Below, in pieces: positions 11,987 to 42,312 of a DNA stretch of 64,000 bases. Numbering within the stretch: position 1 is the first letter of the stretch; every line of letters begins with the position of its first letter. Under the pieces are notes generated by a model, which had not been told where the DNA came from, searched no databases, and saw only the letters and a list, made by a program, of their open reading frames with translations. Made by a program: the position numbers and the translations under genes. The stretch is from Patescibacteria group bacterium (GTDB taxonomy: Bacteria > Patescibacteriota > Minisyncoccia > Phycocordibacterales > Phycocordibacteraceae), in contig JAGWYL010000002.1 in assembly GCA_018969385.1 (NCBI GenBank), forward strand, positions 289-64,288. The letters run 5' to 3'.

Positions 11987-11993
11987 TAGCTGT

Positions 11994-22100: not shown

Positions 22101-22870
22101 GCTCGCCGAAGAACTCGGCGGTCGTCTCGAAGTCCGACGGCATCGTCGTCGAGATACGGGAGGAAAGCCGCGAGAAAGTCATCGTCGTCGCTCCTGCGGC
22201 GGGCCAGGGCAAGAAGGACGGCTCGTCGTTCGAGTATCTCGCGCACTATCCGCGCCAGTCGCTCGTGAAGCCGGGGCAGGAGGTCAAGAAGGGCCAGATA
22301 CTCACGGACGGTTCCGCCGACCTCGACGAGCTGTTCGAGCACGCCGGCCGCGCCGCGACGCAGGAGTACATCATCGCGGAAGCGAGCAAGATCTACGAGC
22401 TCCAGGGCGCATCCGTCTCGCGCAAGCACCTCGAGGTCATCGTGAAGCAGATGTTCTCCCGCGCGCGCATCACGGAGCCCGGAGACACGGACTACTCCGT
22501 CGGCGATGTCGTCGAGGACTGGGAATTCAATGATGCGGTGAAGGCGCTCGCGGATGCCGGCAAGATAGAACCGAAAGCGAAGTCCATCGTGCTCGGCATC
22601 AAGGAGTCCGCGCTTTCGCGCCGCTCCTTCCTCTCCGCGGCGTCCTTCGAACAGACGACGAAGATACTCATCAACGCCGCGCTCAAGGGAAGCGTGGACC
22701 GGCTGAAGGGACTCAAGGAGAACGTCATTCTGGGGCGGCTCATCCCCGCCGGCACCGGCTTCCCGGGAAGCCGGAAGTTCGCGGATGTCGCCGTCCTCGC
22801 GGAGAGGCGCCGCCGCGACCGCGAAGCATCCGAAGTGGCGCTGCCGGTCCAGAAGGCGCGGGCGGTTTAG
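19142..22870 (+). CDS. rpoC: DNA-directed RNA polymerase subunit beta-prime
   Basis: N-terminal zinc finger CYCGKYKG...CDKCG, catalytic NADFDGDQMAVH, C-terminal Zn site SCETRFGICAHCYG. Confidence 0.95.
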   Translation: MAFTPMTPRKRLPSGPDWNALRLTLASPERILAWSHGEVTKPETINYRTQRSEKHGLFDEKIFGPEKDYECYCGKYKGIRYKGIVCDKCGVEITRSIVRRERMGHIELTSPVAHIWFLRSVPSRMALVLGTSAADLEKVVYFAGYIVTKVDEAMKKRFLSELESEYKTKYKSVNTDAERDALKEKMTHARQEIENVVSGRVFDEIEYHRHSVKYGSLFEARTGAEAIYDIFRTLDLSALKATLEARYEHAGAAEREKLAKRISLISGMLAANVRPEWMFLTRIPVIPPALRPMVALEGGRHATSDVNDLYRRVINRNNRLKKLKDIHAPEVILRNEKRILQEAVDALLDNSIRKGGASAGAMTPAQRRPLKSLADYLKGKQGYFRQNLLGKRVDYSGRSVIVVGPDLELDECGLPKHMALELFRPFVIAELLAREFAFNIRGAGRLIEDGVPEVWEILEEVIKGKHVLLNRAPTLHRQGIQAFRPRLIEGDAIQLHPLVCPAFNADFDGDQMAVHVPLSEEAQWEAANIMSANKNILKPGSGEMIVLTQKPLDIVLGCYWLTKEITGAKGEGNYFPNPNAAILAYEYAGIDLRAKVFVMPTADKAKYAHFEGKPFETTVGRLLFNTVLPSDYPFVNDAITKKVLSKIVNDSIERYGLDRVPSIVNKVKRFGFEYATRSGITWGIDDVSVPPGKEAVIGAARGKVLAIDEDFKNGLLSADEKRRMVIEIWHGARQEVEKLVEETLDPLGSVSDMVRSGARGSVGNLTQMVGMKGLIQSTSGDTIEVPITSSMSEGLNPIEYFMSTHGSRKGLTDTALGTAKAGYLTRRLFDVAQDSIITEQDCATKRGISINRTSASGIHINFAEAVRGRYLAADAVAKDGAVVAKKGTYLEAEIAKQLADSDIQTVTVRSPMSCETRFGICAHCYGMDLTTQRLVDLGEAVGTVAAQAIGEPGTQLTMRTFHAGGTASVGGDITQGLPRVEEVFEKRSPKNSAVVSKSDGIVVEIREESREKVIVVAPAAGQGKKDGSSFEYLAHYPRQSLVKPGQEVKKGQILTDGSADLDELFEHAGRAATQEYIIAEASKIYELQGASVSRKHLEVIVKQMFSRARITEPGDTDYSVGDVVEDWEFNDAVKALADAGKIEPKAKSIVLGIKESALSRRSFLSAASFEQTTKILINAALKGSVDRLKGLKENVILGRLIPAGTGFPGSRKFADVAVLAERRRRDREASEVALPVQKARAV

Positions 22871-22875
22871 GGCGC

Positions 22876-22902
22876 GCGGCGGCCCCGCTGCGGGGCCGCC
22901 GC
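22876..22902 (+). terminator. GC-rich perfect 27-nt palindrome immediately after the rpoC stop (U-tract-less terminator candidate)
   Basis: gcggcggccccgc-t-gcggggccgccgc; no downstream U-run, as in I-shaped terminators of high-GC bacteria. Confidence 0.35.
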
Positions 22903-22938
22903 TTACGTGCCGGTCGAACGCGATAAAACTTCACACTA

Positions 22939-24636
22939 ATGGCAACCGACACCGTACAGAAGATAAAAGACAGGCTGTCGATTATCGATGTGGTGACGCC
23001 GTATGTGAAATTGACGAAAGCGGGACGGTACCATAAGGGACTCTCGCCGTTCAACAAGGAGAAGACGCCGTCGTTTTTCGTATCTCCTGACCGCGGTTCG
23101 TACTACTGCTTCTCAAGCGGGCAGGGAGGCGACATGTTCACGTTCATCGAGAAGATGGAGGGCGTTGATTTCAAGGGCGCGCTCGCGATTCTCGCGGAGA
23201 AGGCGGGCGTGGAGCTCGTCTACGAGCGCGGCGCCGACCGTTCGAAGAACGACCGGCTCTTCGAAGCCGTCGCGCGAGCCGAGCAATCCTTCGCGCGCGG
23301 CCTCACCCCGGAAAGCGGCGCATACGCGTACGCCCGCTCGCGCGGCCTCACGGACGCGACGATTCGCGCGTGGAATCTCGGCGTCGCGCCGGACGCCTGG
23401 CGCGCGCTCCTCGAAGAGGAGACGGGACTCGGGTTCTCGGTTCCGGAGCTGGTCGCCGCAGGCCTCGTGAAGGAAGCGGACGGCAAGCCGGGAACGTTCT
23501 ATGACCGCTTCCGGAACCGTCTCATGTTCCCGATACGGGATACGGCGGGACGCGCCGTCGCGTTCACGGGACGCGCGCTCGATGCGGGAAACGAAGCGAA
23601 GTACCTTAACAGTCCGGAGACGGACCTGTTCAAGAAATCGGAGGTGCTCTTCGGCATGCACGCGGCCAAGGATGCGATACGCACGCGCGGCTTCGCGCTC
23701 CTCGTCGAGGGTCAGATGGACCTCCTGCATGCGCACCAGGCGGGATTCGCGAACACCGTCGCGCTCTCCGGGACGGCGCTCTCCGAGCGGCACATAGCGC
23801 TCATCATGCGCTATAGCGAGAATCTCATGCTCGCGCTCGACGCGGACCGCGCGGGCATCACTGCAGCCGGCAAGAGTGCCGTGCTCGCGCTCCGGAAGGG
23901 CATGCGCGTGAAAGCGGTGCGCCTGCCGAAAGGGCAGGACCCCGCGGACGTCATCGGTAAGGACCCGGAAGATTTCGCGCGGCGCGTGCGGGACGCGAAG
24001 CCCATCGTCGAGTTCTACCTCGACACGCTCGTCGAGAGCGAAGGGGACCCGCACCGGCTCGTGCTCGCCGCGGAGCGGCTCGTGCTCCCTCTCGTGCGCG
24101 CGATGCAAAGCCCGATGGAGCGCGAACATTTCATCGGCGTCATCGCGCGGAGGCTCGGCATCGCGGAAACCGGCGTGCGCGGCGCGCTCGCCCGGCTTCC
24201 GGAAGATGCCGTGCCTATAGGACGAGCGCCGGAGGCGGCGGCGCTTCCGGAAGCGGACGAAGACCCCGCCGCGCTCATGCTCGCCGCCGCCGCGCGCGCA
24301 TATCCGGGTACCGCGCTTGAAAAGCACGTGAAAAGTGAGTACGCTCGTATTACCGGGATGCCGCTTGATGATGCGGCGAACATTCCCGAACGCTATCTCT
24401 TCGAGGCCGAGGCGGTCATCGGGGAGGCGCCGGAGCCCGCGAGCGCGGCTGACCTCGTGCTTCGGTTCGAGCGCGCCTACGTGCGGAGCCTCCTCAAGGC
24501 CGCGGGCAAGAGCATCGCGCTTTCGGAAGCGGCGGGCGACGCGAACGAGCTCGCCGCGGCGACCGCGCGGTGGAGCGAGCTCGCGAAACGCGTCAAGGAA
24601 ACGGAGGCGCAGCCGAGCCCGAAGCCGCATCACTAG
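22939..24636 (+). CDS. dnaG: DNA primase DnaG with degenerate zinc-ribbon ligands
   Basis: TOPRIM region [20 protein letters not shown]...EGQMDL present. N-terminal ZBD reads SPFN...CFSSGQGG instead of CPFH...CFGCG. Confidence 0.9.
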
Positions 24637-24655
24637 CAATTACTATCACACGCAT

Positions 24656-25915
24656 ATGGCAAAAGCCGCACGAACCAAAGCGAAGAGACGTCCGTCCGCA
24701 CGCAGCGCGAAGCCGGCTGCCCGGCGGAGCTCGCATAAGCCCGCTCCGAAGAAGTCGAAACGGCCGGTGAAAAAGACGAGAGCCGCCGCGAAGCCCAAGA
24801 AGGCGGCGCATCCCGCCGTGAAGCCTTCCGCGAAGAAGGCGCCGCGCGGCGGGGACCGCAACGCGCTCGCGGACGCGCTCATTGCGAAGGGGAAAGAGCG
24901 CGGCTACATCACCTATAACGAGATACTGAAGGAGTTCCCGACCATCGAGAACGACATCTCGTTCCTCGACACGCTCTACGAGCGTTTTTCCACGGCCGGC
25001 ATCGACATCCTCGAAGGCGGCATGCTCGAAGATAACGCCGACGAATACCTCGCGACCCGCAACATAAAGAGCCGCGAATCGTCCGGATACGATTCCATTC
25101 AGATCTATCTGCGCGAGATAGGCCAGTATCCGCTCCTCACCGCGGCGGAAGAGCGCGAGCTCGCACAGCGCATCGCGGCGGGCGACGACGAGGCGAGGAA
25201 CATCCTCGCGCGCTCGAACCTGCGCCTCGTGGTTTCCATAGCGAAGAAATACGTAGGCCGCTCTCCGGACCTCACGCTTCTCGACCTCATCCAGGAAGGG
25301 AACCTCGGCCTCTTCAAGGCGGTCGACAAGTTCGACTGGAAGAAGGGATACAAGTTTTCCACGTACGCGACGTGGTGGATACGCCAGGCCATCACCCGCG
25401 CGCTCGCGGACCAGTCCCGTACCATCCGCATCCCCGTGCACATGGTGGAGACCATCGCGAAGTACAAGCAGGTGTCCCGCCGCCTCGCGCAGGCCTTGGG
25501 CCGCGACCCGCAGCCCGAAGAGATAGCGGTGGAGATGGGCGTCGAGCCGGAGAAGATATACCAGATCGAGAAGATAAATCAGGACACGCTTTCGCTCGAG
25601 AATCCGGTCGGTTCGGACGACGACGAGAAGTCCACGCTCGGCGACTTCATCGCGGACGACAAGATTCCCTCGCCCGTGCAGGAATCCTCGGAGCGCATCC
25701 TCGGCGAACAGGTGCGCGACATCCTCGGCGACCTCTCGCCCAAGGAGCGCAAGATACTCGAGATGCGCCACGGGCTCCAAGACGGCGTCTACCACACGCT
25801 CGAAGAAGTGGGGAAGGAGTTCGGCGTGACTAGGGAGCGCATCCGGCAGATCGAAGCGAAGGCGCTCGAGAAGATACGCACGCACGACAAGTCCCGCCGG
25901 CTGAAGAGCTACTAG
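24656..25915 (+). CDS. rpoD: RNA polymerase sigma-70 factor, primary-like
   Basis: Lys/Ala-rich N-terminus; region 2 ([45 protein letters not shown]) and region 4 ([24 protein letters not shown]). Start moved to ATG at 24656. Confidence 0.9.
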
Positions 25916-25918
25916 AAC

Positions 25919-26005
25919 CCGTTTCAAAAACCGGCTCGGGGTGCACGGTTCGGAAGCGAACTCTCTTCAGGCTTCCGAACCGTGCACCCCGAGCCGGACG
26001 TTTTG
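25919..26005. repeat. palindromic MITE/REP-like element, copy E2, immediately 3' of rpoD and 5' of the hydrogenase-like cluster
   Basis: cgtttcaaaaaccggctcggggtgcacggttcggaagc - gaactctcttcag - gcttccgaaccgtgcaccccgagccgg - acgttttg; perfect 28-bp stem. Confidence 0.8.
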
Positions 26006-26062
26006 CACACGGTACGCCCTGGACATTCGCTTCGCGCAGGCATAGAGTACTCCGCATCCGTC

Positions 26063-26584
26063 ATGCTTTCGCTTCTCGCCAAGATAGTCGCGACCGGCTC
26101 GATTACCGAGCCGGTTTCGACATTCCCCGAACCGGAACTCGGGGAAACGGGAGAGAACCTGAAGGCGGCCATAGGAGCGCTCTACGGCGGCCGCTCGCTC
26201 CATATCCGGCATGTGGACGCCGGCTCGAACAACGGGGAAGAGTACGAGATGACGGCGCTCGGGAACGCCTTCTATGACGTCGAGCGCTTCGGGCTCTCAT
26301 TCGTGGCATCGCCGCGGCACGCGGACATCCTTACCGTTTCCGGTCCGGTGACGCGCAACATGGAACACGCGCTCCGTACCGCGTATGAACTCATGCCCGC
26401 GCCGCGCATCGTGGTCGCGGTGGGCGACGGCGCCGTGACGGGCGGCATCTGGAAAGGCTCGTACGCCGTCGTCGGCCCCGTGGACTTGGTGATACCGGTG
26501 GACGTGCGCATCCCGGGCGACCCGCCCGCGCCCGCCGACATCCTCGCGGGCCTTCTCGCCGCGGTGCGCAAGGGGCGCTCCTGA
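26063..26584 (+). CDS. NuoB/HycG-like small subunit homolog lacking all [4Fe-4S] cysteine ligands (Ehr-type)
   Basis: Conserved NuoB blocks FVASPRHADILTVSGPVT and IPVDVRIPG present. The Cys motifs CNGCE / GSCA / PGCPP read SNNGEE / GDGA / PGDPP. Start set at ATG 26063 (the track GTG start lies inside element E2). Confidence 0.8.
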   Translation: MLSLLAKIVATGSITEPVSTFPEPELGETGENLKAAIGALYGGRSLHIRHVDAGSNNGEEYEMTALGNAFYDVERFGLSFVASPRHADILTVSGPVTRNMEHALRTAYELMPAPRIVVAVGDGAVTGGIWKGSYAVVGPVDLVIPVDVRIPGDPPAPADILAGLLAAVRKGRS

Positions 26585-26594
26585 CGATTCGCGT

Positions 26595-28583
26595 ATGGCT
26601 CCCTCCGTTTTCGGACTGCTGTTCGTCGCTGCGCTCGTGCTGCCGCTTCTCGGGAGCGCCGCGGCGCTCCTTGCGCGCCGCGCGGGGTGGGGCAATGCGC
26701 TTTCCCAATACCTTTTCATGCTTTCGGGCGTCCTAGGACTCGCCGCGCTCGCCGGCTACTTCACGGCGCTTCACGCCGCATCCTCGGTCGTGCTTCTTAG
26801 TTCGCCCGTCCTCGCGTTTTCGGTGACGCCGCTTAGCGCGTTCTTCCTCCTCATCGTGTACCTCGGGACGTTCATCACGTCGCTCTACGCGCTCGGCTAT
26901 CTGCCGCTCTATGCGGACGCGTATTCGGTGCCGCTTACGAACGCGGTGTCCGGCGTATTCCTCTTCGCGCTCGCCGCGGTGCTTCTTTCGACGACGGTAT
27001 TCACCTTCCTCCTGTCCTGGGAACTCATGTCGCTTTCGGCATACTTCCTCGTCATCGCCGACCGGAGCCCCGAGTCGCTTTCCGCCGGCTTCCTGTACCT
27101 CGTGATGACGCACATCGGGTTCGCCTGCCTTTCCGCCGGCTTCCTGCTCCTTAGCGGAGGCCACGCGTTCATCTCGTTCGACGGCGTGCGCGAGGTGGCG
27201 CGGCAGCTGAATCCGGCCGCGCTCGCCGCAGCGTTCGCGCTCCTCTTCATAGGATTCGGCTCGAAGGCGGGTCTCGTGCCGCTCCATCAGTGGCTCCCGT
27301 ACGCGCATCCGCAAGCGCCGAGCCACAGCTCCGCACTCCTTTCCGGAACCATGCTCAAGGTCGCGCTCTACGGCTTCCTTCTCGCGCTCACGCTCTTTCC
27401 CGGCATACCGGCATCCTGGGCGTTTACGGTCGCGGCGGTCGGCCTCATCTCCGCCTTCTTCGGCGCTCTGTCCGCCGCCGTCGAGCATGACGCGAAGCGG
27501 CTCCTCGCGTGGAGCAGCGTCGAGAACATGGGGCTCATCTTTTCCGGCGTCGGCATAGCGCTCGTCCTCCACGGCCTTTCCATGCCGCTTTCGGGCGCGC
27601 TCGCCGCCGCGTTCGCGCTCTTCGTCGCGTTCCATGTCCTCAATCATTTCGCGTTCAAGACCGGACTCTTCCTCGCGACCGGCGCGATGGTCGCGAAGAC
27701 GCATACGCGCGACCTCGACCTCTACGGCGGGCTCGCGGGGAAGTGGCCGGCGTTTTCCGGCGTCTTCCTCGTGCTCGTCATCGCCGCCGCCGCGCTCCCG
27801 CCTTCGGGGACCTTCTTCGGCGAATGGCTCTACCTGCAATCGCTCGCTGCGGCGCTCCGCTTCTCGTCGCCGCTTCTCGTCGCTTCGGCCGCCGCGGCGC
27901 TCGGCCTTGCGGCGCTCGTCGGCGGCCTCGCGCTCTTCGCGTTCGTGAAGTTCTTCAGTGCCGCGTTCCTCGGCAGAGCGCGGAGCGAACATGCGGAAGC
28001 GGCGGAACCGATGCCCGTCCTGCTCCTCGTCCCGCCGCTCCTATGCGCCGCGTTCTCGGTCCTGCTCGGCCTGTTCGGCCTGCCCGTACTTTCCGCTGCG
28101 ACTGCGGGGTTCGGTTCACTCGTCCCCGTCACCACGGTCGTACCCGGCGCGTCGATGAGCGCCTGGTTCGTGTTCGCGCTTCTCGCCTTCGCGTCCGCTT
28201 TCGCGTTCATCGCTTATCGCGTCTTCGCCCGGAACCGGACCGTGCGCCGGACTGAAACCTGGGACTGCGGTACGCCGCTTACGCCGCGCATGGAGTACAC
28301 GGCGACCGGGTTCTCGGCGCCCATGCGCTTCTTCTTCCGCGGGCTGGTCATGGCGCAGAAGGAGATACTCGCGGAAGCGGTCGTGCCCGGGAATCCGTGG
28401 ATCGCGAACCGGCGCATCGAGTGGAGCATCGCTTCCGTCTGGGAGGCGTGGCTGTACCGGCGCATCGCTCGCGGCATCGTATCCGTCGCCGCGTTCGTGA
28501 AGCGGCTTCAGAACGGCGTCATCCAGCTCTACCTCTTATTCGTGCTCCTCGCGCTCATCATCGTCGTACTCGTCGCCCTATGA
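26595..28583 (+). CDS. NuoL/HyfB/MrpA-like antiporter-type membrane subunit
   Basis: 662-aa polytopic membrane protein with the complex-I antiporter-like fold (LPYAHPQAPSHSSALLSGTMLKVALYG). Confidence 0.85.
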   Translation: MAPSVFGLLFVAALVLPLLGSAAALLARRAGWGNALSQYLFMLSGVLGLAALAGYFTALHAASSVVLLSSPVLAFSVTPLSAFFLLIVYLGTFITSLYALGYLPLYADAYSVPLTNAVSGVFLFALAAVLLSTTVFTFLLSWELMSLSAYFLVIADRSPESLSAGFLYLVMTHIGFACLSAGFLLLSGGHAFISFDGVREVARQLNPAALAAAFALLFIGFGSKAGLVPLHQWLPYAHPQAPSHSSALLSGTMLKVALYGFLLALTLFPGIPASWAFTVAAVGLISAFFGALSAAVEHDAKRLLAWSSVENMGLIFSGVGIALVLHGLSMPLSGALAAAFALFVAFHVLNHFAFKTGLFLATGAMVAKTHTRDLDLYGGLAGKWPAFSGVFLVLVIAAAALPPSGTFFGEWLYLQSLAAALRFSSPLLVASAAAALGLAALVGGLALFAFVKFFSAAFLGRARSEHAEAAEPMPVLLLVPPLLCAAFSVLLGLFGLPVLSAATAGFGSLVPVTTVVPGASMSAWFVFALLAFASAFAFIAYRVFARNRTVRRTETWDCGTPLTPRMEYTATGFSAPMRFFFRGLVMAQKEILAEAVVPGNPWIANRRIEWSIASVWEAWLYRRIARGIVSVAAFVKRLQNGVIQLYLLFVLLALIIVVLVAL

Positions 28584-29527
28584 CCTTCTTCCTCGCCATC
28601 CTTGACGGGCTCATCGTCCTCCTTCTCGCGCCGCTTACGGTCGGCTTCGTCCGGCTCGCGAAAGCGCGTTTCCAGAACCGCCGCGGCGCGCCCGTCTACC
28701 TTCCGTACCTCACGCTCCTCTCTCTCATGCGCAAGGAGATGACCGTGACGAAGCACAGCTCATGGGTATTCGCCGCCGCGCCGTTTTTCGTACTCGCCTC
28801 CGCTATCGCGCTCGCGTTCATCGTTCCGACCGCCGCCGCGGGCGTTCTTCCCGATTTCGCGAGCAACCTGTTCCTCGTCGGCGGCATCGCGGCGTTCGGC
28901 TCCGTCTTCCTCGCCATGGGCGGCATGGACGCGGCGAGCACGTTCGGCAACATGGGCGCAAGCCGCGAGATGACGCTCGCGGCGTTCGTCGAGCCGGCGT
29001 TCTATATGGGATTCTCGGCGCTCGCGCTCGTCGGCGGGACGTGGAGCCTCGACGGCATCCTCCGGCATCTCGCGTCGCTCCCGTGGAGCGCGGGCGTTCC
29101 CGCCGCGAGCATCGCGCTCGTGGCGCTCGTGTTCGTCACGCTCGCGGAGAACGCGCGCTATCCGGTCGATAATCCGGCGACGCATCTCGAGCTCACGATG
29201 GTGCACGAAGCGATGCTGCTCGAATATTCCGGACCGTCGCTCGCGCTCCTCGAATACGCGTCGGCGGTGAAGCTCACGGTGATGCTCGGGCTCGTCGCGA
29301 GCCTCTCCCTGCCGTTCTTCCTCATACAGCCGCCGGTCACCGCGCTCGGCCTCGTGCTCGGCGTTCTCGCGCTCATCGCGAAACTCGCGCTCGCCGCGTT
29401 CGTGCTCGCGTTCATCGAGTCCACGTTCGTGAAGATGCGCTTCTACCGCATGCAGGAATACTTCTCGCTCGCGTTCATCGTCGCGCTCGCCGGACTCCTG
29501 CTCGCGCTCATAAGCATGACCCGCTGA
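28580..29527 (+). CDS. NuoH/HyfC/HycD-like membrane subunit
   Basis: ATGA overlap with the upstream stop; MTFFLAILDGL N-terminus and polytopic profile typical of formate hydrogenlyase subunit 4. Confidence 0.8.
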   Translation: MTFFLAILDGLIVLLLAPLTVGFVRLAKARFQNRRGAPVYLPYLTLLSLMRKEMTVTKHSSWVFAAAPFFVLASAIALAFIVPTAAAGVLPDFASNLFLVGGIAAFGSVFLAMGGMDAASTFGNMGASREMTLAAFVEPAFYMGFSALALVGGTWSLDGILRHLASLPWSAGVPAASIALVALVFVTLAENARYPVDNPATHLELTMVHEAMLLEYSGPSLALLEYASAVKLTVMLGLVASLSLPFFLIQPPVTALGLVLGVLALIAKLALAAFVLAFIESTFVKMRFYRMQEYFSLAFIVALAGLLLALISMTR

Positions 29528-29530
29528 CCT

Positions 29531-30172
29531 ATGACTCCCACCGTCCTATCCGCTTCCTTGCTCGGCGCCATGCTGGTCGCGTCTTTGCTCATGGAAAGCC
29601 GCATGCGCCTCACGTCCTTGGTCACGCTCTTCCGCGTGCAGTCGGCGTTCCTCGGTTTCTACGCGCTCTTGCTCGCGTATGCGGAAGGAGCGATACATCT
29701 TGCGGTCATCGCGCTCCTCATACTCGCCTTGAAGGCGTTCGTCATACCGGAATTCCTGCTCAGGGTCGCGCGCGCGAGCGGCGCGTCCGAGCGGCTCGAG
29801 GCGTACGTGCGCCCGACGACGCTCTCGTTCGCAGGCCTCCTCGTCGTCGGACTCGCGTTCGCGGCTACGAACCTGCTCCTGCCGGACGGCCACTACTTCG
29901 CCGCCGCCGTGTCCCTCTCGCTCGTGATGCTCGGGTTCTTGCTCCTCGTTTCCCGCAAGGACATGTTCGGGCAGGGAATCGGTTTCCTCGGCATGGAGAA
30001 CGGCATCTTCATATTCGGGCTCGCGCTCACGGGCGGCATGCCGCTTCTGGTGGAGCTCTCCGCGCTGTTCGACCTGCTCATCCTCTTCATCCTCGTCGCC
30101 GCGCTCGTGCGCCGCGCGCAGCACGAGCACTCCTCCGTGGGGACGGACCTCTTGCGGACGCTTACCGACTAA
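29531..30172 (+). CDS. HyfE-like small membrane subunit
   Basis: 213-aa polytopic protein in the position and size of hydrogenase-4 component E. Confidence 0.7.
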   Translation: MTPTVLSASLLGAMLVASLLMESRMRLTSLVTLFRVQSAFLGFYALLLAYAEGAIHLAVIALLILALKAFVIPEFLLRVARASGASERLEAYVRPTTLSFAGLLVVGLAFAATNLLLPDGHYFAAAVSLSLVMLGFLLLVSRKDMFGQGIGFLGMENGIFIFGLALTGGMPLLVELSALFDLLILFILVAALVRRAQHEHSSVGTDLLRTLTD

Positions 30173-30185
30173 TCGCGATTTCCGT

Positions 30186-31658
30186 ATGACGATACTCGCG
30201 CTCATCCTCCTCTCGATACTCTCCGGCGTCCTGCCGTTCTTCGCGCGGCGCTTCGAGACCGTTACGGCGCTCGCGCTTCTCGGCAGCTCCGGCGTCGCCG
30301 CGCTGTCCGCCGTCGTCGGCATGCCGGCGCTGCTCGGCGCCTCGGCGCTTTCGGGCGGCGGCCTCTGGTACGTCGATCCGTTCGGCGGCCTCCTGGTGCT
30401 CCTCATCGGATTCATGCAGTGGACCGCGACGATGGCGAGCGTGCCGTACCTCGGCGAGGAAGTCCGGAAGGGCATCACGTCTCTTGCGCGCACGAAGCGC
30501 TATTTCGCGCTTCTCGCGCTCTTCGTCCTTTCGATGCTCGTCACCGTCGTCTCGAACAACCTCGGCTTCATGTGGGTGGCGCTCGAAGCGACGACGCTCA
30601 CGACGACGCTCCTCGTCGCGTTCTACGACCGCAAGGGTTCGGTGGAAGCGGCCTGGAAGTATCTCATCCTGTGTTCGACCGGCATCTCCCTCGGTCTCAT
30701 CGGCCTCCTCATGACCTACTACGCCGCATCCTCCGTGATGGCCGGCGGCGCGACGCTCGACTGGACGACGCTTGCCGCTTCTGCGCACGCGTTCCCGGCG
30801 AGCATCATGCGCATCGCGTTCGCGTTCATCCTCATAGGCTTCGGCACGAAAGCCGGCCTCGTGCCGATGCATGCCTGGCTCCCCGACGCGCACTCGAGCG
30901 CGCCGTCGCCCGTGTCGGGCCTGCTTTCGGGCGTGCTCCTCAACGCCGCGCTCTTCGCCGTGCTCCGCTACAAGGCGCTCGCCGACCTTTCCGCCGGGGG
31001 AAGCGGATGGACGAACGGCCTCCTCCTCGGGTTCGGCGTGCTTACCGTGGCGGTACCGGCGGCGTTCATCATCTTCCAGGCGGACTACAAGCGGCTCCTC
31101 GCGTACTCGAGCGTCGAGCACATGGGACTCATCACGTTCTCGACCGGTCTCGGCGTCGCGGGCCCTCTGATAGCGGTCATCCACATCATCGGCCACGCGC
31201 TCACGAAATCGATGCTCTTCATCGGTGCGGGGAACATCCTGCATCGCTATGAGAGCACGAAGTTCGCGAATGTCGGCGCGGTCATGCGGGTGCTTCCGTA
31301 CACCGGCGCGTTCTTCCTCGCGGGCATACTGCTCCTCCTTGCCGCGCCGCTCTCTCCGCTCTTCGTGAGCGAGTACTTCATAGTGTCCGCCGCCGTCGCG
31401 ACGCATCCGCTCTACACGCTCATCATCCTCTTCGCGCTCTCCGTCATCTTTGCCGGGTTCCTGCATCTTTTCGCGCCGCTCCTCTTCACCGCGCCTTCGC
31501 GCGGCGCCGAAGCGCTCGCGGAAAAGACGGGAGAGCGCTGGAATATCTCCCACACCGCCATGCTGCTCCACATCGTGCTCCTGCTCGCGTTCGGCGCGTT
31601 CCTCCTCACGGGCGCGGCGTACCCGCTCCTTGAGCATGTCGCCGCTTCCATAACCTGA
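30186..31658 (+). CDS. NuoN/NuoM/HyfF-like antiporter-type membrane subunit
   Basis: 490 aa; LVPMHAWLPDAHSSAPSPVSGLLSGVLLNAALF matches the NuoM/N conserved core. Confidence 0.85.
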   Translation: MTILALILLSILSGVLPFFARRFETVTALALLGSSGVAALSAVVGMPALLGASALSGGGLWYVDPFGGLLVLLIGFMQWTATMASVPYLGEEVRKGITSLARTKRYFALLALFVLSMLVTVVSNNLGFMWVALEATTLTTTLLVAFYDRKGSVEAAWKYLILCSTGISLGLIGLLMTYYAASSVMAGGATLDWTTLAASAHAFPASIMRIAFAFILIGFGTKAGLVPMHAWLPDAHSSAPSPVSGLLSGVLLNAALFAVLRYKALADLSAGGSGWTNGLLLGFGVLTVAVPAAFIIFQADYKRLLAYSSVEHMGLITFSTGLGVAGPLIAVIHIIGHALTKSMLFIGAGNILHRYESTKFANVGAVMRVLPYTGAFFLAGILLLLAAPLSPLFVSEYFIVSAAVATHPLYTLIILFALSVIFAGFLHLFAPLLFTAPSRGAEALAEKTGERWNISHTAMLLHIVLLLAFGAFLLTGAAYPLLEHVAASIT

Positions 31659-31664
31659 TCCGCC

Positions 31665-33206
31665 ATGACCATCGACTCGCTGCGTTCTTCGCTCCGGCTT
31701 CCCGCGCTTACGCTCTTCGGCGCGACCGTCGTCCCCTCGGCCGAACTTCCGGCCTACGCCGACGCCTGCGCGGCGCACGGCGCGCCGCTCGTGTTCATGT
31801 ACGGGACGGACGAGCGCGCGGCGGGAATCGGATTCGCGGTGCATGCGGTCTTCGCGCTTCCCGGAAGCGGCTTCGTGACGCTCCGCAGCGTGCTTCCCGC
31901 CGAGAAACCATCCTATCCTTCGCTCACGCGCACCATAATGGCGGCGCACTGGTTCGAGCGGCTCATGCAGGACCAGTTCGGCATCATCGCCGAGGGACAT
32001 CCGGACCCGCGCCGTCTCATCCATCACGAGAACGTGCCGGAAGGAACGTATCCGCTCCGGAAGGATTTCGCCTGGGATGCGAAGCTTCCGCACGCGGACG
32101 TCCCGTATCCCATGCACCGGGTCGAGGGGCGCGGCGTCTACGAGATTCCGGTCGGACCGATACACGCGGGAGTCATCGAGCCCGGCCACTTCCGTTTCAA
32201 CGTACGCGGCGAGCGCATCCTCTCGCTCGAAGGGAAGCTCTTCTTCACGCATAAGGGGGTCGAGAAGCTCGTCGAAGGGAAGACGCCCGCCGAGGCGCTC
32301 CCGTTCATTGAGCGTATCTCGGGCGACATGCCGGTAGCGCATACGCTCGCGTTCGCCGAAGCGGTCGAACGGGCAAGCTGCATCAGTGTGCCGAAGCGCG
32401 CGCGCATGCTCCGCGTCGTCTGGAGCGAGCTCGAGCGCATCACCATGCATCTTTTCGATATGGGAAATATGGGCGGGAACGGGACCGGGTTCACCTTCAT
32501 GGCTGCGCAAGGATTCCGCATGGTGGAGGAGATGCGGCGGATGCACGCGTCGCTTGCCGGACATCGGTACCTCCGCGGCGCGGTGACGCCGGGAGGCGCG
32601 CACGACCTTTCGCAGGAGGCCGCGGCAGGCATGCTTAGGACGCTCGCGCGTATCGAGCGGGACATGAAGGACGTGCTCAAGATCGCGTACGGGACGGACG
32701 GTCTCATGGAGCGGTTCGAGACGACCGGCGTCCTGTCGCGCGCCGCCGCGCTGGCCTACGGCGCGCGCGGCATAGCCGCGCGCGCATCCGGCGTCGACAC
32801 GGATGCTAGGCGCGATTACCCCTACGCGGCCTACGACGAGCTCGCGGTGAACGTCGTCACCGAGAAAGCGGGCGACGTGGCCGCGCGCTTCAAGGTCCGC
32901 GCGCGCGAATTCGAAGAATCGCTCCGGCTCGTCCGCGCCGCGCTCGCCGCGCTCCCGGAAGGGAAGGCGCAAGCCCCGGCCATCGCCAAGGAAGGCGCCG
33001 CGCTTGCCGCCGTCGAAAGCTGGCGCGGCACGATATACGACTGGGTGCGCATCGGCGCGGACGGGCGCATCGACCGCGCTGCGATTTCGGATCCCTCGTT
33101 CTCGAACTGGCCGCTATTCGGCGAGATAGGTCCCGGCAATATCGTCCCTGATTTCCCGCTCTGCAACAAGAGCCTCAACCTCTCTTACTCAGGCACGGAC
33201 TTGTAA
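31665..33206 (+). CDS. NuoC-NuoD fused / HycE-like large subunit homolog lacking NiFe-binding cysteines (Ehr-type)
   Basis: N-terminal NuoC-like AAHWFERLMQDQFGIIAEGHPDPRRLI. L1 motif region reads RISGDMPVAH (canonical RxCGxCxxxH) and the C-terminal L2 region reads SLNLSYSGTDL (canonical DPCxxCxxR). Confidence 0.85.
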   Translation: MTIDSLRSSLRLPALTLFGATVVPSAELPAYADACAAHGAPLVFMYGTDERAAGIGFAVHAVFALPGSGFVTLRSVLPAEKPSYPSLTRTIMAAHWFERLMQDQFGIIAEGHPDPRRLIHHENVPEGTYPLRKDFAWDAKLPHADVPYPMHRVEGRGVYEIPVGPIHAGVIEPGHFRFNVRGERILSLEGKLFFTHKGVEKLVEGKTPAEALPFIERISGDMPVAHTLAFAEAVERASCISVPKRARMLRVVWSELERITMHLFDMGNMGGNGTGFTFMAAQGFRMVEEMRRMHASLAGHRYLRGAVTPGGAHDLSQEAAAGMLRTLARIERDMKDVLKIAYGTDGLMERFETTGVLSRAAALAYGARGIAARASGVDTDARRDYPYAAYDELAVNVVTEKAGDVAARFKVRAREFEESLRLVRAALAALPEGKAQAPAIAKEGAALAAVESWRGTIYDWVRIGADGRIDRAAISDPSFSNWPLFGEIGPGNIVPDFPLCNKSLNLSYSGTDL

Positions 33207-33298
33207 GATTCCGGAACTCGCCGCGGGATGCGCGGTTCGGAAGCCTGAAGAGAGTTCGCTTCCGAACCGCGCATCCCTGGCCGAAGGCTTGAAATACG
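33207..33298. repeat. palindromic MITE/REP-like element, copy E3, immediately 3' of the hydrogenase-like cluster, inverted relative to E2
   Basis: Stem gggatgcgcggttcggaagc / gcttccgaaccgcgcatccc; loop ctgaagagagttc is the reverse complement of the E2 loop. Confidence 0.8.
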
Positions 33299-33312
33299 CT
33301 TCCGTCTGCTTA

Positions 33313-33356
33313 TAAAAAACTCGTGCCTCCTCCCGAACATTCGGAGAGGAGGCACG
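33313..33356 (-). terminator. intrinsic terminator for the minus-strand gene 33375..34058
   Basis: 11-bp stem cgtgcctcctc / gaggaggcacg with loop ccgaacattcgg, preceded on plus by aaaaaa (U-tract on the minus strand). Confidence 0.6.
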
Positions 33357-33374
33357 TATGCTTTGAGGGGTCGC

Positions 33375-34058
33375 TCAAGCGGCTTTCGCCTTCTCGAACG
33401 CCCCGCCGACGTACTGTTTGATCTCGCTTTTCTTCTTGGCCAGCGACCAGGAAGTCGCGAGGCGCAACGGGACGTGCTGTCCGGTATTCGGGTCGTAGTA
33501 GTGCTTCATCACCGTCTGTTCGTTGTTCACGAACCTGACGACGATGTCGCGCTCGCCGACCCGGCGATGCCGCATGCAGATGGTGTCCACGTCGGGCTGC
33601 GGCGGGATGATGTAATACGGAGGTACGAGGTACCCGGCCTTCTTGAGTTCCTTCACCATGGAGTGATGGACCCCGAGTACGGCCAGGATTTCCTCTTCGC
33701 TCATGCATGCGGCACAAGCGTTCAACGCTACATCAAGCCCGTTCCCTAGCGTGACGGGAATCTCTCCCGCCGCCAGGCATTCGAGTATGCGCTTCCAGAG
33801 CAGCACGTAGTGGCCCCACGCCTTGTAGAGTGCGGGAATGGGCTCTAGGTCCCACTCGCCGCGGTCCTCCGCAAGCGGGTGCGGTATCGGTTCGCAGGCG
33901 GCGCCCAGAAACCTAAAAGTATTCTGAGGAAAGGCTTCCTCAAGGATAGGTCTAAGTTCCTGGTCGTAGAATGTCCGGCGGCCGGAGTTGCGCGGTCCGC
34001 CGACGGACAGTACTACCGCCCCGTTCAAAAGATCATTTCCAAACGTCATTCGTCTCAT
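33375..34058 (-). CDS. hypothetical protein
   Basis: Start moved to the internal ATG (MRRMTF) preceded by a purine-rich RBS (gagggtgaagg); followed by a terminator; no motif recognised. Confidence 0.5.
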   Translation of the reverse strand: MRRMTFGNDLLNGAVVLSVGGPRNSGRRTFYDQELRPILEEAFPQNTFRFLGAACEPIPHPLAEDRGEWDLEPIPALYKAWGHYVLLWKRILECLAAGEIPVTLGNGLDVALNACAACMSEEEILAVLGVHHSMVKELKKAGYLVPPYYIIPPQPDVDTICMRHRRVGERDIVVRFVNNEQTVMKHYYDPNTGQHVPLRLATSWSLAKKKSEIKQYVGGAFEKAKAA

Positions 34059-34162
34059 TACCTTCACCCTCACTTGATTGACGTACTCGGGAGTATGCCT
34101 CAAATGCGGCCAGAAATCAACGGTTTCGGCCTGGATATCCCGTGCGGTACACTCATAGGGAC

Positions 34163-36991
34163 ATGCCCACCACTCCCGCATTCGAAGAAGCGTACGCGAA
34201 GCTCAACGCCAAGCAGAAGGAGGCCGTCGATACGGTCGAAGGGCCGGTGATGGTGCTCGCGGGTCCCGGCACGGGGAAGACGAGCATCCTCACGGTCCGC
34301 GTCGCGAACATACTCGCGAAGACGGGCGCGAAGCCGGACGAGCTCCTCGTGCTCACGTTCACCGATTCCGCCGCGCGCACGGTCGCCGCGCGGCTCGCGG
34401 GACTCATCGGCGAAGAGGTCGCGCGCAAGGTGAACGTGTACACGTTCCATAGCTTCGCGAACGAGGTCATCCGCACGCATCCTGAAGCGTTCCCGGAACA
34501 TGTCGACCGGCGCCAGATGAACGAGCTCGAACAGGTGCTCGTGTGGCGCGCCGTGCTCGAGAAGCACGGGGACCCGCTCCTCTCGACGCCGAAGTCGCCG
34601 TTCCACTACCTCAAGGACCTGAAGCAGCTTGAGGACGAGATGACGCGCGAATGCTTCTCGACGGACGCGTACCGCGCGTGGCTCGATGCGGAAGAGGAAC
34701 GCATCAAGGAGGACCCCGCTTCCCGGTACGCGAAAGGCGGGAAGGGCGGTGCCGCGGGAGAACTCAATCCGAAGGGTCGTGAGAGGCTCGCGCGGCTCGC
34801 GAAGGGACGTGCGGCCGCGAAGCTCATCGACGCGTACCGCGCGGAAAAGGACGCGCGCGGGCTCTACGGCTACACCGATGTCCTTCGCGTCGTCGTCGAC
34901 GCCATCGCTTCCGACGAGGCCTTGCGCGCGGAACTGCAGGAACAGTACCAGTACGTGCTCGCCGACGAGCACCAGGATGCGAACGCGCTGCAGCATGCGC
35001 TCGTCGACGCGCTCGCGTTCGACGACCATCCGAACCTCTTCATCGTGGGTGACGAGAAGCAGGCGATATTCGGTTTTCAGGGCGCGGACGTCTCGCACTT
35101 CGGGTCGTTCCTTGAGCGCTATCCGCGCACCGCGCGGATAGCGCTTTCCGAGAATTACCGTTCGTACCAGGAAGTGCTCGACGTGGCCGAAGGGCTCCTC
35201 GCGGAATTGCCGAGCGCAGTCGGCGCGCATGCGCCGCTTACGGCTACGCGCGGCGCGGGCGGCCGCATCCGCCTCCTCGCCGCACCCGACCCGCTCGCCG
35301 AGCGCGACCAGGTGGCGACGCTGGTGGAAGAGGCTATAGCCGAAGGCGTGCCGCCGCACGAGCTTGCGGTCATCACGCTCAAGAATAAGACCGCGGACCT
35401 TTTCGCATTGCACCTACGCGCGCGCGGGATTCCCGTGCTTCGCGCAGGCGATATCGACCTCGACGGGAGGCCCCTCGTACGCACGCTCTTCGCGCTCATG
35501 CGCGCGACGGGCGACCCGACCGACGCGAGCGCGCTTCGCGAAGCGCTCCTTGCGCCGTGGTGGAACGTGCCGCTCGCCGAGCGCGCCCGGTTCTTGCGCA
35601 CCACGAATGACCGGGAACTGGAAACGGTCCTTGAGGAAGCGTTCCCGGCTGTCGCGGGAATCATCGCCGCCTTGCGCGAGGAAGCGCTCGCCGTGCCGCC
35701 CGCGAACTTCTTCTCGCTCCTCCTCGCGCAGTCGGGAGCGCGCGACTACCTGCTTTCGCATGCCGATGCGCTTACTGAAGACGTACCTCTCGTACGGAAA
35801 GTCATGCAGTACGTGGAAGAGCTCGTGCGCCGCGCGCCGAGCGCGACGTTCGCGGAAGTGGTCGCCGAGTTCGAGCAGGCGCGCGAGCATGAGGTCGGCG
35901 CGCTAACCACGTCGCGCACGCGCGCGGAAGGCGCGGTAACGGTCATTACCGCGCACAAGGCGAAGGGCATGGAATTCGCGCGCGTGTTCGTGACCGCGCT
36001 TACGAAGAGCGAGTGGGAAGGGCGGGGGAAAAGCGCGCTCGTGCCGTCGCCCTTCGACGGCAAGCGCGAGCACGACGAGCTCATCCGCCTGTTCTATGTG
36101 GCGACGACGCGCGCGAAAGACGCGCTCGTGCTCTCCTATGCCGCGGAGAACGGCGACGGGAAAGAGCAGCCGCCGTTCTCTCTCATGCCGGCCGGGCTCG
36201 AGACCCTCTCTGTCCCGTCCGATCCGCTTCCGAAGCTCTTCACGGTCGTCGAGCCGACCGCGCTCCTACGCGAACTCACGGAGCGTTACCTCGTGCATGA
36301 CGGCCTTTCGCCCTCGGCGTACAACGAATATCTCGAGAGTCCGCCCGCCTTCTTCGCGAAGCGCGTGCTGCGCCTTTCCGAGCCTGAGACGCGCGCCATC
36401 GCGGCGGGGAATGCGGTGCACGCGGCGCTCGCGCGATTCCTCAAGACGCGGGATGCGGACGAGGCGCACGCCGAACTCGCCCGCGCGTTCCGCCAATCGC
36501 TCCTGCCGCGCGGCGATACGTTCGATGCGCTCGTCCGTCACGGGTCGGCGCTCCTTCGCGCGGCGCTTGCCGACCCGTTCTTCGCAGGGGAGGCGCTCGC
36601 TATCGAGGAAACGTTCAAGGCGAAACGCGTCGTACGCGGCACGGAGGTGGCGCTCAAGGGGAAGATAGACGCGCTCATGCGGACGGATGAAGGCCTCTGC
36701 ATCGTGGATTTCAAGACGTCGAGCTCGATAGAGAAGGAAGAGAAGGAGCGGTTCGCGCGGCAGATAGCCTTCTATGACCTCTTGCTGCGCGCGAACGGAC
36801 ACGAACCGGTCTCCGGGCGCATCGTGCGCCTTTCCGAGGAAGGCATCGAAGAGCACCGCGTGCTGCTCGCGAAGGAGATGCGCACGGAGCTCGAAGCGAC
36901 GCTCGATGCCGTGCTCGAAGAGCTCCTTACGGGCCGGTGGCGCGCGGGCGCTCCTTCCGACTACGACGCGCTCTTTCGCCTCTTGGCGTGA
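34163..36991 (+). CDS. UvrD/PcrA-family helicase with C-terminal PD-(D/E)xK (RecB/Cas4-like) nuclease domain
   Basis: Walker A VLAGPGTGKTS, helicase motifs YQYVLADEHQDANALQ and VTVITAHKAKGMEF; C-terminal GKIDAL...CIVDFKTS...QIAFYDLL nuclease motifs. Confidence 0.85.
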   Translation: MPTTPAFEEAYAKLNAKQKEAVDTVEGPVMVLAGPGTGKTSILTVRVANILAKTGAKPDELLVLTFTDSAARTVAARLAGLIGEEVARKVNVYTFHSFANEVIRTHPEAFPEHVDRRQMNELEQVLVWRAVLEKHGDPLLSTPKSPFHYLKDLKQLEDEMTRECFSTDAYRAWLDAEEERIKEDPASRYAKGGKGGAAGELNPKGRERLARLAKGRAAAKLIDAYRAEKDARGLYGYTDVLRVVVDAIASDEALRAELQEQYQYVLADEHQDANALQHALVDALAFDDHPNLFIVGDEKQAIFGFQGADVSHFGSFLERYPRTARIALSENYRSYQEVLDVAEGLLAELPSAVGAHAPLTATRGAGGRIRLLAAPDPLAERDQVATLVEEAIAEGVPPHELAVITLKNKTADLFALHLRARGIPVLRAGDIDLDGRPLVRTLFALMRATGDPTDASALREALLAPWWNVPLAERARFLRTTNDRELETVLEEAFPAVAGIIAALREEALAVPPANFFSLLLAQSGARDYLLSHADALTEDVPLVRKVMQYVEELVRRAPSATFAEVVAEFEQAREHEVGALTTSRTRAEGAVTVITAHKAKGMEFARVFVTALTKSEWEGRGKSALVPSPFDGKREHDELIRLFYVATTRAKDALVLSYAAENGDGKEQPPFSLMPAGLETLSVPSDPLPKLFTVVEPTALLRELTERYLVHDGLSPSAYNEYLESPPAFFAKRVLRLSEPETRAIAAGNAVHAALARFLKTRDADEAHAELARAFRQSLLPRGDTFDALVRHGSALLRAALADPFFAGEALAIEETFKAKRVVRGTEVALKGKIDALMRTDEGLCIVDFKTSSSIEKEEKERFARQIAFYDLLLRANGHEPVSGRIVRLSEEGIEEHRVLLAKEMRTELEATLDAVLEELLTGRWRAGAPSDYDALFRLLA

Positions 36992-37007
36992 CCACTTTCC
37001 ATGCGCG

Positions 37008-37688
37008 CTATTTCGTCGACTGGATGGCGTTATCGACGAGCGTCTTCAGCTGGTCGAGGGGAAGCGCGCCCGGAATCGCGACGGGCGTATGGCCTTTGAC
37101 GAGGAGGACGCTGAAGGGCGTGCCTTGCGCACCCGCGGAAAGCGCATCCTGCCGCTCGCCGGCCACGAGCGTCGCGGTGTCGCCCTGGCTCATGCAGGCA
37201 TCGAATTGCGAGGAGTCGACGCCGACCTTCGCGAGGAGCGCGGGATACGCGCTCGGGTTCGTGGGCTGTCCGCCGAAGAGAAGGTCGCCGAATTTCCAGA
37301 AGGCGTCGCTGCCGCCGACGCGCGCGACGCACTCGGCGGCTTCGGCGTGCTTCGCCGCATTCGGGTGGAGTTCCGTGAGCGGGAACTCGCGCATCACCCA
37401 CGCCACGTCCCCGTTCGTCCCGTAGGACGCCATGAGTTGGTGCAGGGTGTCATGGAATTGCTTGCAGAACGGGCAGTCAAAATCGGAATACTCGATAATG
37501 ACGACGGGAGCGGCGGGATTCCCGAGGATATGGTCCGCCGAAGTGACCGGAGGTATGAGGCTCAAGTCCGCCGTCGGCGAAACCGTGGAGGGTTCCTGGC
37601 CGGCCTGCATGCGCAGGTGGATGTACACGCCGCCTGCGATGAGTATGCCCGCAACCGCTATCGCGCCCGGAATGATGAAGTCTCGCAT
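37008..37688 (-). CDS. DsbA-like thiol:disulfide oxidoreductase, membrane-anchored
   Basis: N-terminal TM segment; thioredoxin-fold active site DCPFCKQFH. Confidence 0.8.
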   Translation of the reverse strand: MRDFIIPGAIAVAGILIAGGVYIHLRMQAGQEPSTVSPTADLSLIPPVTSADHILGNPAAPVVIIEYSDFDCPFCKQFHDTLHQLMASYGTNGDVAWVMREFPLTELHPNAAKHAEAAECVARVGGSDAFWKFGDLLFGGQPTNPSAYPALLAKVGVDSSQFDACMSQGDTATLVAGERQDALSAGAQGTPFSVLLVKGHTPVAIPGALPLDQLKTLVDNAIQSTK

Positions 37689-37717
37689 AGGATTCCAGTA
37701 TACCGCGCGTTGTACCG

Positions 37718-38296: not shown

Positions 38297-38302
38297 GGAA
38301 AT

Positions 38303-38333
38303 AGCTTACAGGTTACAGCTGCGCTGACAGCAG
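38303..38333. repeat. copy of the short AGCTTACAGCTG / GCTGTCAGC motif family
   Basis: agcttacaggttacagctgcgctgacagcag; related to the inverted copies at 6732-6806 and 41106-41138. Confidence 0.35.
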
Positions 38334-38338
38334 ATACG

Positions 38339-39640: not shown

Positions 39641-39766
39641 CCTGTGGTACGCCGCCCCGCCTCCGCCGTCGCGGAATCATAGTCGCCTCACCGTGCCGCC
39701 GAACGGAATACTTTGCTGAAGACAGTCTCACGTTCCATTCGGCGCTCTCTGTAAAACCAGGCGAAG

Positions 39767-40351: not shown

Positions 40352-40354
40352 GCG

Positions 40355-40597: not shown

Positions 40598-40599
40598 GC

Positions 40600-41337: not shown

Positions 41338-41547
41338 GCGCGTACGCTACCACGGCGCGCGCGATGCGGATTCTCGACACTCTGTATTTTGCGTGGTATA
41401 ATACACAGGAAAGTACGCCAGGACTCGTTTCAAGGCGTACGGCGAGCGACAGGTGTGCGATTCGGAAGCCTTGTATGGGCTCGCTTCCGCATCGCATGCC
41501 TGGAGCAAGCCGTTCTTGAGACGAGTCCAAGAAAATATGGGTAATGC

Positions 41548-42225: not shown

Positions 42226-42252
42226 CGGACATGCTTGAGAATCGTCTCAATG

Positions 42253-42290: not shown

Positions 42291-42312
42291 TGCGTGCATG
42301 AGAATGGATACA

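Follow-up and report, generated by a model that had tools for sequence, protein, structure and literature searches.

The closest described counterparts of the repeat reported here are the ~100-150-nt palindromic repeats scattered through the small genome of Rickettsia (Rickettsia palindromic elements; RPEs), the Correia elements of Neisseria, the ERIC/IRU repeats of enterobacteria and the miniature inverted-repeat transposable elements (MITEs). RPEs are found between genes and also in frame within genes, which they do not destroy. Correia elements, ERIC/IRU repeats and MITEs are imperfect palindromes of ~100-150 nt with terminal inverted repeats, occur as many intergenic copies near stop codons or promoters, frequently where the DNA is transcribed, and can give rise to long RNA hairpins. 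Patescibacteria have very small genomes with little repetitive DNA, and a full-text literature search gave no paper that pairs them with palindromic repeat families. Here we describe such a repeat in an ultra-small Patescibacteria group bacterium, where five copies, numbered E1 to E5 in order of occurrence, lie in a 64,000-nt stretch of one contig (GCA_018969385.1, contig JAGWYL010000002.1, positions 289-64,288, forward strand; hereafter “the window”). Two of them, E2 and E3, stand at the borders of a six-gene operon for an Ehr-type complex (Table 1). We conclude that E2 and E3 are very probably independent insertions of a lineage-specific palindromic repeat beside an ancestral, vertically inherited Ehr operon.

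Like RPEs, the window repeat lies between genes and once in frame within a gene (E5, 34 codons), and no transposase is known for either. Unlike RPEs, it occurs in a different phylum and has only one of its five copies in a gene, and the two show no sequence relationship. It resembles Correia elements, ERIC/IRU repeats and MITEs in size, imperfect palindromy, terminal inverted repeats and position, and it fits the description of a MITE as a small, non-coding, dispersed repeat with terminal inverted repeats but not the fixed-length target duplication. Correia elements and MITEs of the IS630/Tc1 type duplicate a TA target, whereas in the window TA is present on both sides of E1 only and not of E3, E4 or E5 (the TA dinucleotide frequency in this genome is 0.022). 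A further difference from these families is that no parent insertion sequence is known for the window repeat and that our scans confined it to one species (see below).

Two other kinds of system were considered and rejected. Repetitive extragenic palindromes (REPs) and bacterial interspersed mosaic elements (BIMEs), which are moved by RAYT (IS200/IS605-like) transposases, are likewise extragenic palindromes that follow stop codons without target-site duplication, and roles as stabilisers of mRNA 3' ends or as terminators have been proposed for them, as for the window repeat. REPs measure 20-40 nt and are marked by a GTAG or CGTC tag at one of their ends (PMC3733652). The window repeat is ~100 nt long, shows no such tag at its ends by eye, and no RAYT gene, integrase or parent insertion sequence was found in the window. 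Composite transposons and integron attC sites share with this locus the repeats at both borders of a gene block and the palindrome directly 3' of a stop codon. The attC core sites are GTTRRRY and RYYYAAC. The ends of the window repeat (GTTTCAA and TTGAAAC) do not fit them, and its neighbours are housekeeping genes. Composite transposons differ from the locus in that no transposase and no target duplication were found in the window and that the would-be cargo is syntenic in repeat-free relatives.

We compared the locus with those of seven relatives (L003, L005, L007, L012, L013, L014 and L015) and of a second strain (L001; GCA_028865695.1, JAGWJQ010000023.1; compared with window 21663-35023). 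The Ehr operon is present in the seven relatives' loci, in each case with conservation of at least the genes downstream and with rpoD upstream in four of them, and a scan of 153 kb of these loci with a covariance model built from all five window copies found no copy of the repeat. In the closest relative, L013 (60% amino-acid identity to the window in the histidyl-tRNA synthetase, HisRS), a 55-nt spacer separates rpoD from the six Ehr genes, and a 76-nt spacer separates these from a minus-strand gene of 222 aa; there follow UvrD/PDDEXK, DsbA, RNase H-like, HisRS, bPH, an 85-aa gene, a methyltransferase (MTS) and an RRM gene, which is the order found in window 24656-42803. In L005, L012 and L014, 2-5 small variable genes stand between rpoD and Ehr, a ~190-245-aa gene on the minus strand and then a PDDEXK gene come after Ehr, and rpoD is preceded by dnaG where the locus extends that far; L007 and L015 share the downstream side of Ehr with the window.

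The two spacers that bound the operon differ between the window and L013 by one repeat length each. The spacer between rpoD and Ehr is 147 nt in the window versus 55 nt in L013, and that between the large-subunit gene and the convergent gene is 168 nt versus 76 nt; both differences are exactly 92 nt, and the coding DNA flanking both spacers aligns well. L013 therefore provides the empty site for E2 and E3, as L014 and 11 further homologues do for E5, with the reservation that the comparison is between species and not between strains; a polymorphism of filled and empty sites was not found. A promoter is conserved inside the first spacer: the -35 motif CT(G/A)GAC and the -10 motif TAnAnT are kept upstream of the first Ehr gene in all seven relatives aligned. 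In the window, this promoter lies between E2, which ends 6 nt before the -35 box, and the first Ehr start codon. On the other side of the operon, a single strong GC-rich hairpin follows the large-subunit gene in six relatives (in the seventh, L003, the 18-nt spacer contains no more than a weak 6-bp hairpin), and the window has E3 plus an ordinary hairpin at 33322-33356.

We propose that each copy entered one of these two short spacers as an insertion of ~92 nt. E2 would have inserted between the rpoD stop codon and Ehr's own promoter, and E3 between the large-subunit stop and a pre-existing terminator shared with the convergent gene. The operon would have been present beforehand, and the repeats would neither have brought it nor form a composite transposon with it. 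The Ehr operon would thus be an old resident of the rpoD-UvrD region and not a recently mobilised cassette.

E5 provides further evidence for gain. It lies in a GlcD/D-lactate dehydrogenase-like FAD-linked oxidase gene encoding 602 aa, where it adds 34 in-frame codons without a stop (codons at its borders: GAC|GGA ACT CAT TTC ... ACG AGT TCC|GCT). These 102 nt account for 34 residues of an extra stretch of 49-50 residues (window 49335-49484) that is missing from the L014 orthologue, which is 54% identical over its full length. At this site the structural homologue 9qgz_A (Protein Data Bank) has 7 residues where the window protein has ~54, and 11 aligned close homologues, including the longest and one from the L013 contig, have 0-13. 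Among the 119 closest homologues listed, most are 550-570 aa long (range 540-600). In the alignment, the insertion falls within a variable loop of the FAD-binding domain. Taken with the clean length differences of 92 nt at both E2 and E3, the in-frame position of E5 therefore argues for gain in this lineage and against stem-loops that evolved in place. The repeat family appears to be a small non-autonomous mobile element of MITE-, Correia- or RPE-like type, whose copies would survive where they are harmless: directly behind stop codons, in an untranslated leader and, in one case, as in-frame codons for a variable protein loop.

The five copies score 69-110 bits with the covariance model, and the next best match in the window scores 27 bits. 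They are 95-114 nt long (105-114 nt for full-length copies), and a full-length copy has the terminal inverted repeat GGAACTCGTTTCAA and two stems, an outer one and an inner one of 20 bp, with a small internal loop between them and a loop of 13 nt at the tip; across the copies the GC-rich inner stem measures 20-27 bp. There are two loop types, one shared by E1, E2 and E3 and the other by E4 and E5, which carry it in mutually opposite orientations. All copies fold at -61 to -74 kcal/mol, with z-scores of -6 to -11 relative to shuffled sequences. When the five copies are compared, compensatory changes on both sides are found at 11 of the 40 base pairs, and in the inner helix 97% of the cells are paired; therefore, complementarity has been maintained in the repeat.

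Such maintained pairing would also be expected if the hairpins were not mobile at all, that is, if they had arisen in place as regulatory stem-loops, whether terminators, attenuators or protein-binding sites, and had stayed similar through selection or gene conversion. Three of the five copies begin 0-6 nt past a stop codon (E1, E2 and E3, after the minus-strand RNase R/II-like gene, rpoD and the Ehr large-subunit gene, respectively), and relatives have ordinary hairpins at the same two junctions. In addition, pairing in E4 is retained on one strand only, the one read from an adjoining promoter-like site. This copy sits between an extended -10 site (TGgTATAAT, ~41393-41401) and a 225-aa gene without a family match, and its RNA folds at -72.4 kcal/mol with five G-U pairs from the plus strand and at -58.5 kcal/mol with none from the minus strand. 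The asymmetry is seen in E4 only and may point to selection acting on the RNA of this older copy. We nevertheless regard an origin of the whole family in place as very unlikely. E5 is in frame in a conserved enzyme gene and missing in all homologues examined; the copies share non-pairing loop sequence and terminal repeats, which would not be expected from evolution in place; the length differences to L013 are clean; E3 stands beside an intact ordinary terminator; and the orientation of the copies relative to the upstream gene is inconsistent, with E2 in sense and E1 and E3 in antisense. E4 and the 225-aa gene are both missing between the methyltransferase and RRM genes of L013, which is otherwise collinear with the window (41393-42225).

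E2 and E3 had been noticed in a sequence-only reading of the window, which described them as inverted copies that exactly flank a metal-less hydrogenase-like cassette. Their placement was borne out: E2 was placed at 25919, shortly after the rpoD stop (25913-25915), and E3 starts at 33207, directly after the large-subunit stop TAA (33204-33206). Homology to full-length copies gives refined ends of ~25913-26014 and ~33207-33306, so that the rpoD stop TAG abuts or overlaps the first base of E2. The description as exactly flanking holds for both borders of the six genes, with the qualification that Ehr's own promoter lies between E2 and the first gene; the distance to the first Ehr start codon is 48 nt from the refined end of E2 at 26014 (57 nt from 26005). 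E2 has perfect 27-bp arms (25931-25957 and 25971-25997) around the loop gaactctcttcag, is followed by ACGTTTTG and folds at -69.9 kcal/mol (z -10.8). The core pattern of the repeat has two exact occurrences and one with three mismatches in the window, and none of 100 shuffles contained a match. In E3, one outer arm has lost ~15 nt. The E3 loop ctgaagagagttc is the exact reverse complement of the E2 loop over all 13 nt, as claimed. The two copies are 83% identical in inverted alignment and 76% in direct alignment, and their inverted orientation rests almost entirely on the loop because the elements themselves are palindromes. For a palindrome, the opposite orientation would have no functional meaning.

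The same reading had likened the pair to a composite or MITE-flanked cassette and proposed that it could reflect mobilisation or acquisition of the whole module. On this view, the two copies would be the ends of a transposable unit through which the 7.2-kb Ehr module reached the locus or can leave it. Related copies with identical, oppositely oriented loops at both operon borders, a family that is probably mobile given E5 within a gene, and the reported patchy distribution of Ehr genes across lineages of the candidate phyla radiation (CPR; PMC7304191) are all in keeping with this idea. The comparisons speak strongly against it, and we consider it extremely improbable. In addition to the relatives that hold the operon at the same place without repeats, with each spacer differing by one repeat length in L013 and with the promoter that is now inside the bracket, the composition of the cassette is native. 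Its GC content is 0.65-0.68 versus 0.60-0.68 in the 8 kb on each side, its pooled distance in relative synonymous codon usage to other genes is 0.045 versus 0.050 +/- 0.014 for random six-gene sets, and its dinucleotide signature lies inside the spread seen for other stretches of 7.2 kb. Outside the E2-E3 pair no target-site duplication was found (longest shared word 3 nt in 20-nt flanks; null probability of an equal or better match, 0.99). Thus, both observations that the sequence-only reading had named as refuting mobilisation were made: the cassette at the same locus without flanking repeats in relatives, and no compositional difference from the flanks.

The bracketing itself also requires no special explanation. 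The copies lie at ~3.7, 25.9, 33.2, 41.4 and 49.4 kb, with spacings of 22, 7.3, 8.2 and 8.0 kb. The E3-E4 and E4-E5 intervals (~8 kb each) likewise bracket gene blocks, and the E3-E4 block consists of housekeeping genes in the order conserved in L013. Therefore, with copies spaced by 7-22 kb, bracketing of a gene block is normal here and not special to Ehr, and at one copy per 7-8 kb in that part of the window, repeats at both Ehr borders are expected by chance. Where a repeat is dense in a genome, its presence on both sides of an operon is not evidence of mobility.

Another part of the earlier reading, that E2 and E3 are independent copies used as 3' hairpins of two adjacent operons, stood as regards position and independence. 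At the RNA level, the rpoD transcript would carry a very stable 3' stem-loop made by E2 and the Ehr transcript one made by E3; these stem-loops could slow 3' exonucleases, and E2 could block read-through from rpoD into the Ehr promoter region. The L013 spacer has no hairpin between rpoD and the Ehr promoter, and E2 may therefore now insulate the two transcription units. After the E2 stem the sequence reads ACGUUUUG. No U-run is present at E3, and both loops exceed the 8-nt limit of the terminator scanner.

Several points weigh against the reading of E2 and E3 as independent insertions beside a vertically inherited operon, or narrow what it can claim. (i) No transposase domain was found among the window proteins scanned, and the flanks of the single copies in the window show no consistent target-site duplication. 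(ii) E3, which lacks a U-run and stands beside an intact ordinary terminator, may therefore do nothing and be neutral, and for both copies a role as a 3' hairpin can at most be inferred. (iii) L013 is distant and all five copies come from one species, so that the insertions cannot be dated. (iv) Loss of the repeat in all relatives is excluded by parsimony alone. (v) The region around the operon is unusually uniform between the window and L001. The second strain is 99.3% identical to the window over 13.4 kb and has E2 and E3 with zero differences. The 8.9 kb at 25421-34326, which include E2, Ehr and E3, contain 2 differences in total, and the flanks have 8-51 per kb (rpoC 3' end, 24 per kb; rpoD, 8 per kb; UvrD-like gene from 34327, 51 per kb). 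A recent exchange or sweep of the 8.9 kb as a single block is probable.

There are two possibilities for this last observation. First, the module may move between strains by ordinary homologous recombination through its flanks, with the block of E2, Ehr, E3 and the 224-aa gene imported or swept as a unit. The contrast between block and flanks points that way, and such exchange would be compatible with independent insertion of E2 and E3 beside a resident operon; we regard it as possible, though not probable. The block begins within rpoD, 493 nt to the left of E2, and ends within the UvrD-like gene, ~1 kb to the right of E3; the repeats were therefore not the breakpoints. Other stretches are also free of differences (for example, 22890-24239), which suggests that the mosaic is general. 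Second, both sequences are metagenome consensus assemblies that may mix strains, and the uneven differences could alternatively be a mosaic from such assembly. Near-identity over 8.9 kb with flanks that differ by 1-5% offers a handle on recombination in natural Patescibacteria populations.

Scans of genomes, metagenomes and viral contigs did not turn up the repeat family beyond this one species. The inner-stem pattern gave one chance match, in a Bacteroidales genome, among 185,579 species-representative genomes and, in the JGI metagenomes, four matches, likewise by chance. In viral contigs, the inner-stem and outer-repeat patterns gave weak matches of 12-28 bits, compared with 69-110 bits for true copies. 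When peptides from all open frames of the five copies were concatenated and searched, only the window's own FAD oxidase matched. An exhaustive search with the 50-residue E5 insertion gave three marginal matches (E ~1e-3), two of which are spurious open reading frames across CRISPR arrays (P0123 and P0124). Neither peptide search revealed a further protein carrying an insertion of this kind.

A resemblance to CRISPR repeats was also seen in the repeat itself. Each arm is ~36 nt long, starting with GTTTCAA and ending with TTGAAAG, like many CRISPR repeats. At gathering thresholds, Rfam has no family in the window; at permissive thresholds it returns generic hairpin families (microRNA precursors) and sub-threshold matches of CRISPR-DR15 and CRISPR-DR10 to single arms, among them CRISPR-DR15 matches to the E1 arms (3672-3706 and 3722-3760) of 18 and 15 bits against a gathering score of 36. 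Neither cas genes nor CRISPR arrays were seen in the window. The likeness does not extend beyond the GTTTCAA...GAAAC termini and carries little weight, and we did not take it as evidence of a CRISPR origin; that the 36-nt arms might derive from a CRISPR-type repeat is a much weaker suggestion than the one that follows.

With somewhat more reason, though still tentatively, the repeat could be a palindromic mobile-element family, the first described in Patescibacteria, that was active recently. Recent activity is suggested because E2 has a perfect 27-bp stem and the loops of E2 and E3 are identical. The family appears to insert without target duplication, beside stop codons and, like the RPEs of Rickettsia, even in frame within a gene. 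This would imply an enzyme acting in trans in a genome with otherwise very little mobile DNA, and E2 would separate transcription of rpoD from the Ehr promoter 6 nt downstream. The family is of modest interest in its own right: such repeats are rare in these small genomes, and the in-frame copy in an enzyme parallels the Rickettsia elements.

Table 1. Repeat copies and genes of the rpoD-Ehr locus, in coordinates of the window; scores of repeat copies are from the covariance model
Feature	Position	Strand	Remarks
E1	3664-3770	+	Full-length copy; 110 bits; right end abuts the stop of the RNase R/II-like gene (3766-5724, minus strand)
E2	25913-26014	+	Palindromic repeat copy; 27-bp perfect stem, 13-nt loop gaactctcttcag, right terminus diverged; 92 bits
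E3	33207-33306	-	Palindromic repeat copy, opposite loop orientation; 20-bp perfect inner stem; 69 bits (minus), 50 bits (plus)
E4	41419-41532	+	Diverged copy, second loop type; 76 bits
E5	49376-49480	+	Full-length copy, in frame inside the FAD-linked oxidase gene (47988-49796, minus strand)
rpoD (sigma-70)	24656-25915	+	Pfam Sigma70 regions r1.1 to r4; gene call in L001
Ehr promoter, sigma-70-type TGGACA-17-TAGAGT	26020-26048	+	Sole promoter-like match in 25500-34500
Ehr small subunit (NuoB/HyfI-like)	26063-26584	+	Pfam Oxidored_q6; NCBIfam NuoB matches under family cut-offs
HyfB/NuoL-like antiporter-type membrane subunit	26595-28583	+	Pfam Proton_antipo_M; NCBIfam hydrogenase 4 subunit B, 463 bits, below cut-off
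HyfC/NuoH-like membrane subunit	28580-29527	+	Pfam NADHdh; gene call in L001
HyfE-like small membrane subunit	29531-30172	+	NCBIfam hydrogenase 4 membrane subunit, E 3e-13, below cut-off
HyfF/NuoN-like antiporter-type membrane subunit	30186-31658	+	Pfam Proton_antipo_M; NCBIfam hydrogenase 4 subunit F
Ehr large subunit (fused NuoC-NuoD/HyfG-like)	31665-33206	+	Pfam Complex1_30kDa, Complex1_49kDa, NiFeSe_Hases
Ordinary GC-rich terminator hairpin with T-run	33322-33356	-	Counterpart of the relatives' single hairpin before the convergent gene
Convergent gene, 224 aa	33375-34049	-	No Pfam or NCBIfam match

The label of a metal-less hydrogenase-like cassette proved correct, both in domain content (Table 1) and in the missing ligands. 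The translated small subunit has zero cysteines and therefore cannot hold a 4Fe-4S cluster. The large subunit has other residues in place of all four Ni-Fe cysteine ligands (its N-terminal motif reads RISGDMPVAH and the one at the C terminus NLSYSGTDL), with the motif positions, which we take to be those of the two CxxC motifs of [NiFe] hydrogenases, placed from HycE/HyfG. Neither catalytic subunit of the six-gene complex is thus predicted to be able to bind metal. The six genes encode an Ehr-type complex, an ordinary member of a kind already known in CPR bacteria: it has the large, small and antiporter-like membrane subunits of group-4 hydrogenases and complex I, lacks the metal-binding cysteines and shows no notable difference from described complexes. 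Their closest homologues (55-73% identity) are from Kaiserbacteria and other Parcubacteria, and a published study reports that CPR sequences without these cysteines form a monophyletic subclade of Ehr (PMC7304191).

A minus-strand gene of ~190-245 aa follows Ehr in six of the seven relatives (L005, L007, L012, L013, L014 and L015), and L003 has a minus-strand gene of 561 aa. The 224-aa gene of the window is only 25-27% identical to the relatives' copies. It may be a fast-evolving partner of the Ehr complex or merely a conserved neighbour.

Three further candidates for repeat copies (24150-24219, 7514-7608 and 54337-54420) scored only 20-27 bits and were treated as other hairpins. The second of these is a long hairpin shortly 3' of the stop of a tRNA (m1G) methyltransferase gene (6813-7502); it ends in TTGAAACGG, scores 22 bits with the repeat model and could be a very diverged relative of the repeat or an unrelated terminator. 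Within the third, at 54351-54400, a perfect 22-bp palindrome (CCGGCATGAATCCCGCGGCGGC-TTT-GCCGCCGCGGGATTCATGCCGG) lies inside a PIF1-like helicase gene (52985-54688), in the coding linker between the helicase core and HTH_40, and may be a palindromic insertion from another family. Duplication of a different sort is seen at 8472-13004, where a 222-nt stretch occurs in three copies (~74% identical) at 10311, 11747 and 12783. The copy at 10311 falls in the PEP-utilising mobile domain of a PPDK_N-type gene, and the triplicate suggests a run of tandem paralogues or domain duplications.

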